Sequence record: LT960607
Direction: 5' to 3' (one strand)
Source: Escherichia phage SECphi17
Length of the DNA stretch: 5,538 nt
Below the pieces are notes generated by a model. The model was given only the letters and a program-made list of their open reading frames with translations. It was not told where the DNA came from and searched no databases. Numbering within the stretch: the first letter of the stretch is position 1; every line of letters starts with the position of its first letter. The position numbers were made by a program, and so were the translations under genes. Shown piece by piece: positions 3,508-5,538 of this stretch.

Positions 3508-3545
3508 TGACAGGGGGAAAAATTTTAATTTTTCGCCCCCTGTCA
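3508..3545 (+). other. F-G intergenic hairpin: 10-bp perfect stem (TGACAGGGGG / CCCCCTGTCA) enclosing an AT-rich loop AAAAATTTTAATTTTTCG. Candidate complementary-strand priming site and/or terminator TF.
   Basis: Inverted repeat 3508-3517 / 3536-3545 read directly from the sequence. The loop is nearly identical to the recalled phiX174 F-G loop (TAAAAATTTTAATTTTTG). Confidence 0.5.
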
Positions 3546-3595: not shown

Positions 3596-4120
3596 ATGTT
3601 CCAGAACTTTGTTACTAAACACAATTCTCCTCAATTTACTACTACTATCACAAAGGCCGTCACTCCTGCCGCGTTGGCTCCTATTATTAATACGCCAACC
3701 GTTGCGCGTGACAATTTCTTTGTGAGCTTAACTACTACCGCCCTAACTTCTCCGGGCGGTATCTCTGCTGTTGTCGCTATCGACAACTCTTCTCATACCG
3801 ACAATCAGGTTATTTCTATTGCTGCCTCTCTTTCTACTACTGGCAGCCTAGTACCTGTTCTTTGTCGGTTTGAATCTGCTACTGTACCAACGGCTATTCC
3901 CGCATCTGCGGTTACTTACTACCCGTTGGGCTTTACATCATCTGCTACCGCTTTGTCTGTCAAGGACTGCGCTACTGTCTCTACTCTTTCCCGCTCTGGC
4001 AATCCTGTTTATGTAGGTATTGTCCTTATTGCGAAATCATTTGTCGCTGATACTGTATACGGCTCTATCTCAATTAATCAGGTTGACCAAGAAATCACAA
4101 CTCTGCAACCTCTCAAATAA
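3596..4120 (+). CDS. G: Major spike protein G (174 aa).
   Basis: ATG at 3596-3598 with AAGGA at 3583-3587. Conserved N-terminus MFQ.F..HNS and C-terminus ..VKDC.T......R..GN.VYVG.......LQPLK relative to recalled phiX174/G4 G; the middle is divergent. The track's TTG at 3548 would start translation inside the intergenic hairpin region and is rejected. Confidence 0.9.
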   Translation: MFQNFVTKHNSPQFTTTITKAVTPAALAPIINTPTVARDNFFVSLTTTALTSPGGISAVVAIDNSSHTDNQVISIAASLSTTGSLVPVLCRFESATVPTAIPASAVTYYPLGFTSSATALSVKDCATVSTLSRSGNPVYVGIVLIAKSFVADTVYGSISINQVDQEITTLQPLK

Positions 4121-4129
4121 GGAATCTCT

Positions 4130-5167
4130 ATGTTTGGTTTAATCGCTGGCGGCATCGCCTCTGCTCTTGCTGGTGGTTTAATGTCCAAATTGATGGGCGG
4201 CAATAAACAAGCCGCCCCCTCAACTCCCGGACAAGGCCTCTTCGCTACTCCTGAAACTACTATCTCTGCTGATAATGCAGGTATTCAATCTGTTATGCAG
4301 GGGCCTAACCCGCCCGGCCCTGACCAAGCGGCTCCTTCATTTACCGAATCTGCCGTCTCCTCATTTAAGGATGTCGGCAAAGGACTTCTCGATGGTACTC
4401 TACAAGCTGGCGGCTCTGCTGTTCAACAAGCTCTTCTTAACAAAATTGGCCTCGGTGGTAAATCTGCTTCTGATAAAGGCGAGGACACTAAGGATTATCT
4501 TGCTGCTGCGTTCCCAGAACTCAACCCGTGGGAACGCGCTGGCGCTGGTGCTTCCTCTGCTGGCATGGTTGACGCAGGTTTTGAGAATCAAAAAGAACTA
4601 ACCAAAATGCAACTTGATAACCAAGTCAAAATCGCTAAGATGCAAAACGACACGCAAAAGGATATTGCTGGTATCCAGTCTGTCACTTCTCGGTTAAATA
4701 CCAAGGATTCTGTGTATGCTCAAAACGAAATGCTCTCATACAATCAAAGAGAATCTATGTCACGCGTTGGCGCTATTCTCGAAAACACAAGCCTCACCAA
4801 ACAACAACAAGTCTCTGAAATTATGCGGCAAATGCTTACTCAGGCTCAGACCGCAGGTCAATATTTTACAAATGACCAAATTCAAGAGCTTACTCGAAAG
4901 GTTGGTGCTGATATTGATGCTGTTCGCGCTAACACTGAGCGCACCAATGTAGAAACAGGCCGCTCCAAACAAGAGCTACAAAACTCACGTTATGCATCTT
5001 CACAGGTCGGTAAAACAGCCAAGGATATCTCAAATGTCATTATTGATGCATCTTCTGGTATTGTTGATTATTTCCGTGGCATTGATAAAGCTGTTGGCGA
5101 CACTTGGAACAATTATTGGAAAGATGGTAAAGCCGACGGAGTAGGCTCCAACATGTCTCGCAAATAG
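4130..5167 (+). CDS. H: DNA pilot / minor spike protein H (345 aa).
   Basis: ATG at 4130 with AAGGA 8 nt upstream. Glycine-rich N-terminus [16 protein letters not shown] and long matches to recalled phiX174 H ([101 protein letters not shown]). Confidence 0.95.
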
Positions 5168-5168
5168 T

Positions 5169-5198
5169 TTGACAATCACATCATAAATCCTATCTAAT
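5169..5198 (+). promoter_or_regulatory. Candidate sigma70 promoter pA in the H-A intergenic region: -35 TTGACA (5169-5174), -10 TCTAAT (5193-5198), 18-nt spacer.
   Basis: Perfect -35 hexamer immediately after the H stop and a 5/6 -10 match. Same placement as recalled phiX174 pA. Confidence 0.45.
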
Positions 5199-5220
5199 AG
5201 CCTCCATTAACACGGAGGCT
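5199..5220 (+). other. H-A intergenic hairpin AGCCTCC-ATTAACAC-GGAGGCT, whose 3' arm contains the gene A Shine-Dalgarno sequence.
   Basis: Perfect 7-bp inverted repeat 5199-5205 / 5214-5220. GGAGG at 5214-5218 lies 7 nt before the A ATG at 5226. Homologous in position to recalled phiX174 GCCTCCAAATCTTGGAGGC. Confidence 0.5.
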
Positions 5221-5225
5221 TTAAC

Positions 5226-5538
5226 ATGTCTGTAGAACTCATCAAACCACTTGTAGAAGCTGCTGGCATGTCCACGCTTACACAATCTCCAAACCTCCGC
5301 ATCTGGAAACAAGTAAACACTCGCGTAAAATTACTTGAAGAAATCCTTACTTATTACACAAACGGAATCCGTCGCTGCCCTGACACTCAGGACTTCTACA
5401 TGAATCCAAATTCACAACTTGCAACCACTATTGCCTATCGTGCTCATCAAAAGGGACACAATCCAAAATTCAAACAATACCCTGATACATTCACCCTGGA
5501 CGATATCATTTCCGGTAAACCAATCCCTGAAACTGCCC
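5226..5538 (+). CDS. A: Replication initiator protein A, 5' portion (runs to window end; continues in frame at 1..1377 of the circular genome).
   Basis: ATG at 5226 is the first start after an in-frame TAA at 5208-5210. GGAGG at 5214-5218 sits 7 nt upstream. The frame stays open to the window end, and 5484-5538 is identical to 1-55, joining frame 1 of the A body. Confidence 0.85.
   Translation, partial: MSVELIKPLVEAAGMSTLTQSPNLRIWKQVNTRVKLLEEILTYYTNGIRRCPDTQDFYMNPNSQLATTIAYRAHQKGHNPKFKQYPDTFTLDDIISGKPIPETA
5484..5538. repeat. 55-nt terminal direct repeat identical to bases 1-55: overlap from linearising a circular genome, not a biological repeat.
   Basis: Exact identity of 5484-5538 with 1-55, read directly. 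Gene A reads through the junction in frame. Confidence 0.9.

Follow-up and report, generated by a model that had tools for sequence, protein, structure and literature searches.

The Shine-Dalgarno (SD) sequence of gene A in Escherichia phage SECphi17 lies inside a hairpin in the spacer between genes H and A, directly against the candidate gene A promoter, pA. This arrangement raises the question of which RNA molecules can form the hairpin and what it does to them. We addressed the question in the window, the whole 5,538-nt stretch of record LT960607. Positions 1-55 of the window are identical to positions 5484-5538 over 55 nt, and these identical ends imply a circular genome of 5,483 nt presented with a terminal overlap. 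By sequence comparison, SECphi17 is a G4-like member of the Bullavirinae (a microvirus), with 93-94% full-length identity to Escherichia phages MG1, lillemer and Lilleput, and about 79-85% identity to ID2, ID18 and G4 within conserved parts. The architecture of the H-A spacer was already recognised with the sequences of phiX174 and G4, and it has recently been re-examined; SECphi17 adds a member with an eroded T-run.

Layout of the H-A spacer

The features of the spacer and its flanking genes are collected in Table 1. The ATG at 5226 corresponds to the annotated start of gene A in both MG1 and Lilleput.

Table 1 Features of the H-A spacer and flanking genes in the SECphi17 window
Feature	Position	Strand	Basis or remark
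Gene H ORF	4130-5167	+	Annotated in relatives MG1 and Lilleput (94% identical)
Gene H stop codon TAG	5165-5167	+	Upstream edge of the 58-nt H-A spacer
pA -35 hexamer TTGACA (consensus)	5169-5174	+	Sequence; position shared with relatives
pA -10-like hexamer TCTAAT	5193-5198	+	Positional homolog of phiX174 TTTCAT 3950-3955; putative function
Hairpin 5' arm AGCCTCC	5199-5205	+	Occupies slot between pA -10 and +1; covaries with 3' arm across clades
Predicted pA transcription start window	5204-5207	+	From geometry; likeliest A5206, first loop base
Hairpin loop ATTAACAC, 8 nt	5206-5213	+	Sequence, folding
Hairpin 3' arm GGAGGCT	5214-5220	+	Perfect 7-bp pairing with AGCCTCC
Gene A Shine-Dalgarno GGAGG	5214-5218	+	Inside 3' arm; 7 nt to ATG
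Tail TTTAAC, degenerate U-tract	5220-5225	+	T-run of 3 (first T paired), then AAC
Gene A start ATG	5226-5538	+	Runs across circular junction, stop at 1377, 544 aa

The -10-like hexamer matches the consensus at five of six positions, at a spacing of 18 nt from the -35, and lacks the A at position 2. No nucleotide separates its end from the 7-bp stem, and a single one separates it from the conserved GCCTCC core, so that the candidate -10 (5193-5198) does adjoin the hairpin, whose stem begins at 5199, as had been proposed. The sequence likewise bears out the original prediction that the gene A GGAGG falls in the 3' arm of a perfect 7-bp hairpin (5199-5220). The stem consists of five G-C and two A-U pairs, and TTAAC (5221-5225) is the only sequence between it and the gene A ATG.

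Folding of the 34-nt stretch around the hairpin gave -12.6 kcal/mol (z = -5.1), a value that none of 200 shuffles equalled. The complete 93-nt spacer region showed no unusual structure (z = -0.86), which confines the significance to the local hairpin. Perfect hairpins of at least 7 bp numbered five on the + strand of SECphi17, against 2.2 ± 1.8 in shuffles; taken by itself, before comparison with other genomes, the H-A hairpin is not exceptional. We judged it to be more than a chance feature because of its conservation.

Generic annotation tools passed over the element. An Rfam scan of the whole window with E values up to 1 matched no family, a generic promoter scan of SECphi17 did not call pA, and a generic terminator scan did not call the H-A hairpin. 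The promoter was missed because TCTAAT lacks the A at position 2 and the hairpin because of its short T-run, so the silence of these scans is not evidence of absence. A terminator on the minus strand was considered and rejected: the complement folds well but is followed by ATTAGATAGG, which contains no T-run.

Orthology to the phiX174 pA-T_H composite

In phiX174, the H-A region combines the promoter pA, the terminator T_H and the ribosome-binding site of gene A (Sanger 1977, Godson 1978, Hayashi 1981/1989, cited in Logel & Jaschke 2020). Promoter pA of phiX174 is made up of a mutation-sensitive TTGACA at 3927-3932 and a degenerate TTTCAT at 3950-3955, according to a 2026 saturation-mutagenesis preprint (10.64898/2026.07.25.740675). 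The composite reduces transcription to a net 0.29-fold, with T_H, at about 70%, the strongest terminator of phiX174 (Logel & Jaschke 2020). SECphi17 resembles phiX174 in the position between H and A, the TTGACA, the degenerate -10 adjoining the stem and an identical GCCTCC/GGAGGC core, and further in carrying GGAGG within the 3' arm, in the distance of 7 nt from SD to ATG, and in having the first purine after the 5' arm 7-8 nt past the -10. The two elements differ in stem length (8 bp in phiX174, 7 bp in SECphi17), in loop size (3 nt and 8 nt, respectively) and in the tail (a run of six T and TTTAAC, respectively), and in that the phiX174 -10 carries a TRTG extension (10.64898/2026.07.25.740675) that SECphi17 lacks. 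Activity has been measured for the phiX174 element, whereas the SECphi17 element is known from its sequence.

To place the element more widely, we compared 22 complete genomes, comprising close relatives and the G4-like, phiX-like and alpha3-like clades, together with loci from viral and metagenome contigs. Spacers were extracted by coordinates from whole genomes, as a BLAST search with 5100-5330 reached only the Lilleput group. Searching viral contigs with a single-protein query gave 2 loci and with an alignment query 23 loci, and an exact search for the promoter anchor TTGACAATCACATCATAAATCC in viral and metagenome contigs found nothing. The metagenome scan with a gene A alignment was dominated by phiX174 spike-in. 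One contig of that set (L047-L116), FUFK010037421.1 of 327,964 nt, is a head-to-tail phiX174 concatemer, a sequencing spike-in artefact; several low-coverage marine-sediment contigs (L094, L106, L100) are chimeric or error-laden copies of phiX174, and none of this material was counted as natural variation. The two most distant loci (L044 and L045, about 33% gene A identity), which have no comparable layout, were also left out.

A common order of TTGAC(A/T), a spacing of about 17-18 nt, the -10-like hexamer, a stem that has the SD in its 3' arm, a T-run and the ATG was found in more than 30 distinct versions, in all three clades and at every locus with an intact H-A junction; even L029, an outlier at 52% identity, has the same succession of pA, hairpin and ATG. 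The TTGAC[A/T] -35 stood at the equivalent position in 23 of 25 versions, the exceptions being TTGGCA (L036) and TAGACA (L029). To the same clade as SECphi17 belong G4, ID2 and ID18 (Gequatrovirus) and, as closer relatives, PJNS002 and the metagenome contig L046, which share a spacer of 58-61 nt, the 6-bp GCCTCC/GGAGGC core and the 8-nt loop; PJNS002 and L046 also have the TCTAAT -10 and a loop that begins with ATT. Alpha3, St-1 and WA13 (Alphatrevirus) share with SECphi17 the TTGACA, 18 nt, then a -10 (TATATT), a stem with the SD, a T-run and the ATG. They differ in that the SD in the 3' arm is GAGGG, the T-run is T5-6 and the stem is GCCCTC/GAGGGC, two compensatory swaps away, with a length of about 10 bp. 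SECphi17 itself shows the features of the Bullavirinae pA-T_H, namely the H-A location, a -35 and -10 abutting the stem, and a GC-rich stem that includes the SD. Judged by sequence, the SECphi17 element is an ortholog of the phiX174 pA-T_H composite.

An alpha3-like viral contig of 6,039 nt (IMGVR_UViG_2974698941_000001, L031) is missing about 29 nt that are present in alpha3, at about 690-730. The deletion takes out the -10 and the entire 5' arm, joining TTGACAGA to TAGTTTTACTACGAGGACTTTTTCGTATG, and leaves a natural or assembled variant that keeps the SD and has no hairpin and no obvious -10.

Covariation and constraint

The G4 and phiX clades share GCCTCC/GGAGGC as their core stem, members of the alpha3 clade have GCCCTC/GAGGGC, and G-U wobble intermediates (GCCTTC/GAGGGC and GCTCTC/GAGGGC) also occur. 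In a 16-sequence alignment, pair 4 of the stem was UA in nine sequences, CG in five and UG in two, and pair 5 was CG in nine and UA in seven. Across clades, 92% of cells in the stem alignment were paired in the true register compared with at most 58% in slid registers. The covariation score was reached by none of 500 shuffles, in a data set with few independent events, essentially one split between alpha3 and the rest plus the wobble variants. Sequence comparison thus indicates clearly that the two arms change together and that their pairing is under selection.

Among the seven Lilleput-like genomes, the block that opens with the -35 and closes with the stem was invariant at all 52 sites, compared with variation at 13.7% of columns across the genome (P about 5e-4). 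The tail from the stem to the ATG varied in five of its seven columns, reading TTTAAC, TTTAACA or TCTTTCGA. This sequence comparison showed that promoter and hairpin are under purifying selection in the group of SECphi17.

Two explanations of the stem have to meet these observations. According to one, the 5' arm is kept only as a GC-rich discriminator of pA and the 3' arm only as the SD, their complementarity being incidental. GCCTCC does occupy exactly the -6 to -1 slot, and GC-rich discriminators are generally known to tune promoter behaviour; against this, the arms change together, from UA to CG and from CG to UA through GU intermediates, the pairing collapses in slid registers, and in the phiX174 and alpha3 clades the stems reach 8-10 bp, past the discriminator. 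We regard incidental complementarity as scarcely credible.

The other explanation assigns the stem-loop to the DNA, as a signal in the viral (+) strand for complementary-strand synthesis, for superinfection interference (the 'reduction sequence') or for packaging. The + strand DNA folds as well (-6.6 kcal/mol, z = -4.3). The literature places the H-A region of phiX174 and G4 inside a cloned 495-nt 'reduction sequence' (3705-4200) that inhibits complementary-strand synthesis, and experimental evolution is reported to hit the H-A spacer repeatedly. The same study of the reduction sequence, however, found that differences in inhibitory strength among wild phages followed missense changes in gene H, and the known complementary-strand origins of phiX174 lie elsewhere (F-G spacer; 10.64898/2026.07.25.740675). 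The fixed register of the stem with -10, SD and ATG, moreover, is explained by roles at the RNA level and not by a DNA signal, and a stem of DNA suffers more from G-T wobble variants than one of RNA does. A role of this kind is very unlikely.

Predicted start site of pA and the two classes of RNA

Which RNA can form the hairpin depends on where transcription from pA begins. A start 6-8 nt past the SECphi17 -10 would fall at 5204-5206, at the end of the 5' arm or on the first base of the loop. The same geometry recurs among relatives: in every version scored with a recognisable -10 (24 of 25, ID18 having been mis-scored), this hexamer ends 0-2 nt before the core stem, and 24 of 25 have a purine directly behind the 6-nt arm, namely A in 23 and G in St-1. 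This purine sits 7-8 nt past the -10, except in the G4 type, where the register of the -10 is ambiguous, and in the mis-scored ID18.

The corresponding purine of phiX174 is A3962, and the 9-mer AAATCTTGG occurs once in the phiX174 genome, at 3962. We take AAATCTTGG to be the 5' terminus of the pA transcript made in vitro, which would set the phiX174 start at A3962 (pppAAAUCUUGG); this 5' end reportedly goes back to Smith and Sinsheimer in 1976 and to Sanger in 1977. A text search of the literature for the phiX174 pA 5' oligonucleotide returned nothing relevant. The phiX174 stem-loop has been described as containing both the transcription start site and the gene A ribosome-binding site, with the end of the promoter directly preceding the terminator stem (Logel & Jaschke 2020). 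The 5' arm thus fills the slot between -10 and +1, which would oblige RNA polymerase to begin at about C5205/A5206; we infer this start for SECphi17 by homology, with a -10 that is non-canonical and a promoter that the generic scan left uncalled. If pA starts inside the stem, the mRNA of gene A itself lacks the 5' arm, so it could not form the hairpin.

Computed opening costs of the SD separated the two classes of RNA. In any RNA with the complete stem, opening cost 12.3-13.2 kcal/mol; for starts at 5205-5209 it cost 4.7 kcal/mol, and 4.7-5.3 kcal/mol across starts at 5203-5209. The leader 5206-5260 was no more structured than shuffles (z = +0.9), and the predicted 4.7 kcal/mol that remains in pA-initiated RNA comes from pairing with downstream coding sequence. 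Thermodynamic modelling therefore showed a predicted difference between pA-initiated and read-through RNA. A CCTCC at 5295-5299, in codons 23-25 of gene A (N-L-R), is able to pair with the SD in pA-initiated RNA and accounts for the residual of about 4.7 kcal/mol; it is apparently not conserved in phiX174.

Hairpins that sequester an SD are familiar as translational attenuators from the model of de Smit and van Duin and the MS2 coat gene. As in attenuators of this type, the GGAGG of SECphi17 is fully paired (about -12 kcal/mol), which should depress initiation by orders of magnitude; unlike them, the promoter of the gene is predicted to start inside the hairpin, so that occlusion would be confined to RNA from upstream promoters. 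This bears on the original prediction that the hairpin throttles gene A, in the sense of a cis-acting attenuator on the pA transcript that sequesters GGAGG and keeps A low. The SD does lie wholly within the -12.6 kcal/mol stem, with about 12-13 kcal/mol needed to open it in RNA containing 5199-5220, and A protein is needed in small amounts. Attenuation of the gene's own mRNA, however, needs a start at or upstream of 5199, only 0-1 nt after the -10, which is sterically implausible, whereas geometry puts the +1 at 5204-5206 and the phiX174 start lies inside the stem-loop. Losing the 5' arm lowers the opening cost from about 12.8 to about 4.7 kcal/mol.

Mutational data from phiX174 point the same way. 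Of the detrimental mutations in T_H, 63% lie within the 3' stem, the one overlapping the ribosome-binding site, and 13% in the 5' stem (10.64898/2026.07.25.740675). Sensitivity of the 3' stem together with tolerance of the 5' stem is what one would predict for a stem that plays no part in the mRNA of gene A itself. Mutations of the 5' stem are mostly neutral, though freeing a strong ribosome-binding site of a toxic nickase should matter, and their rarely harmful effect argues against control of gene A dosage by the stem. The same tolerance implies that, under laboratory conditions, whatever function depends on the hairpin contributes little to fitness. Throttling of gene A on its own transcript is thus improbable, and this part of the prediction is not upheld.

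At the junction of -10 and stem, the CATGCC of G4 (L010 32-34), ID2 (L008 32-34) and phiX174 (L014 3954-3956) gives rise to an ATG in the reading frame of gene A, with no stop between, 27 nt upstream in G4 and phiX174 and 30 nt upstream in ID2. The SP14 record (PP501405.1, L019 3623), filed under Caudoviricetes, annotates gene A from this ATG. SECphi17 has TAATAGCC at the junction and lacks this ATG.

Strength and lability of the T-run

As in a canonical terminator, a stable GC-rich stem directly follows gene H in SECphi17. Past GGAGGC, the sequence TTTAACAT contains four T in eight positions, three of them contiguous, fewer than the five or more U in eight that a canonical terminator has by a rough rule. 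The phiX174 equivalent reads GCCTCCAAATCTTGGAGGC followed by TTTTTT and the ATG. The original prediction gave this TTTTTT correctly, and likewise the TTAAC behind the SECphi17 stem; the T-runs number three T in SECphi17 against six in phiX174.

We scored terminators by a formula after d'Aubenton-Carafa et al. 1990 combined with modern energy parameters, so that only the ranking is to be trusted. On this scale the SECphi17 hairpin scored -18.8, the phiX clade +27.6, L046 +11.7, the alpha3 clade +2 to +14, G4 and ID18 about -2, ID2 -7, PJNS002 -10 and Lilleto -24, which ranks the SECphi17 group (-18.8 to -24) below every other clade compared. T-runs ranged from 1 to 6 across Bullavirinae versions, with most clades keeping 4-6 T and the SECphi17 group at the low end: G4 and ID18 have four, ID2 and PJNS002 three plus scattered T, L046 five, SECphi17 TTTAAC and Lilleto TCTTTCGA. 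L046 (OBLN01002562.1, a 5,539-nt metagenome contig, 89% identical) has the same pA and hairpin layout at 843-905, with a 7-bp GCCTCCA/TGGAGGC stem, and its TTTTTC tail (T5) indicates that the T-run is labile between close relatives. Sequence comparison thus showed a weak and evolutionarily labile T-run, and SECphi17 is predicted to insulate gene A at the level of transcription less well than phiX174.

The H-A hairpin is nevertheless the best terminator-like site on the + strand of SECphi17. No other site could replace it, and none of the + strand hairpins in the genome is followed by a canonical U-tract. A poor tail does not exclude partial termination, as T_J of phiX174 works with a TT tail and a score of -10. 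T_J is an established terminator and stabiliser with an efficiency of 20-40% (Logel & Jaschke 2020). The original view of the hairpin as an attenuator more than a terminator was therefore partly right: a function independent of the T-run is plausible, with an invariant stem and a variable tail, but to conclude from the missing U-tract that the hairpin is no terminator was too strong.

These data bring up the reading that the hairpin is primarily an intrinsic terminator, T_H, and a stabiliser of late mRNA 3' ends, usefully partial despite UUUAAC, whose overlap with the ribosome-binding site reflects genome economy. Its orthology to phiX174 T_H (about 70% net block), its rank as the top terminator-like site of the + strand, the performance of T_J, the 4-6 T of most clades and the T5 of L046 all speak for it. 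Terminator hairpins are also known to stabilise upstream RNA, and the low level of the pA transcript results largely from instability (Zhao et al. 2012). In the SECphi17 group, however, the tail is the only unconstrained part next to an invariant stem, and the scores fall under those of all other clades. Every version places the SD in the 3' arm and keeps it there through compensatory change, which is hard to ascribe to economy alone.

The alpha3 clade offers a further comparison. There, the pA hairpin ends a 758-nt spacer, and a second strong hairpin with T6 directly follows gene H. In alpha3 (L016), this 12-bp hairpin lies at 28-59, about 700 nt upstream of the pA-proximal one, with -16.7 kcal/mol and a TTTTTT behind it. 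End-of-H terminator and pA hairpin thus appear to be separate elements in this clade. That alpha3-like phages retain the pA hairpin despite having a separate and better terminator after H suggests a role tied to pA and the ribosome-binding site, not only to ending H transcripts. We consider a primarily terminating role possible but doubtful.

Probable insulation of gene A from late transcription

The reading we favour, with a probability of roughly 0.65, is that the element is a pA-T_H ortholog insulating gene A against late transcription, with the weak pA left to drive its expression. A sigma-70 promoter (TTGACA, 18 nt, TCTAAT) would stand directly against a GC-rich hairpin carrying the gene A SD in its 3' arm. 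Gene A mRNA initiated at pA would have an unstructured leader of about 20 nt, with GGAGG free and the 5' arm absent. Both arms would be found only in RNA coming from upstream, that is, in late transcripts reading through F, G and H. On read-through RNA the hairpin may cause some termination or pausing, probably weak given UUUAAC instead of U6, and could shield the RNAs that end there from 3' exonucleases. Where transcription continues, it would mask the gene A ribosome-binding site, and abundant late RNA would make no replication protein. For SECphi17 itself, we infer both how efficiently the hairpin terminates and that read-through RNA stays untranslated for gene A.

A start site inside the hairpin would make the effect of the hairpin depend on where the RNA began. 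One 22-nt stem-loop would then combine three roles, as terminator and stabiliser, as mask of the ribosome site and as promoter-proximal sequence. A constrained stem next to a labile T-run calls for caution in annotation and in engineering or refactoring phiX-like genomes, and also for expression models of phiX174 that treat T_H solely as a terminator; beyond microvirus biology it matters little.

A more far-reaching version, which we put forward tentatively and consider unlikely, is that in the Lilleput-like lineage the T_H hairpin no longer terminates and has been kept purely as a translational insulator that the promoter bypasses. Occlusion of the ribosome-binding site would then be the conserved core function across the Bullavirinae, and termination an optional one that varies with the T-run (T1 to T6). 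If termination has been lost, late transcripts would run round the circle into gene A and remain silent for A, since only they carry the 5' arm.

Other hairpins in the window

Two perfect 7-bp hairpins in coding sequence equal or exceed the H-A hairpin in stability, GGGCGGC...GCCGCCC near the start of gene H (4195-4217, -14.2 kcal/mol) and ACCGCCC...GGGCGGT in gene G (3737-3760, -12.3 kcal/mol). Stems as GC-rich as these almost never appeared in shuffles (mean 0.07 per genome). The J-F spacer holds GGGGCTTCGGCCCC at 2180-2193, identical to the stem of phiX174 T_J but with AATTTAAGG behind it instead of TTACTTGAGG. The F-G spacer contains a long hairpin (3510-3543; ACAGGGGG AAAAATTTTAATTTTTCG CCCCCTGT), in the place that the complementary-strand origin and T_F region occupy in phiX174.
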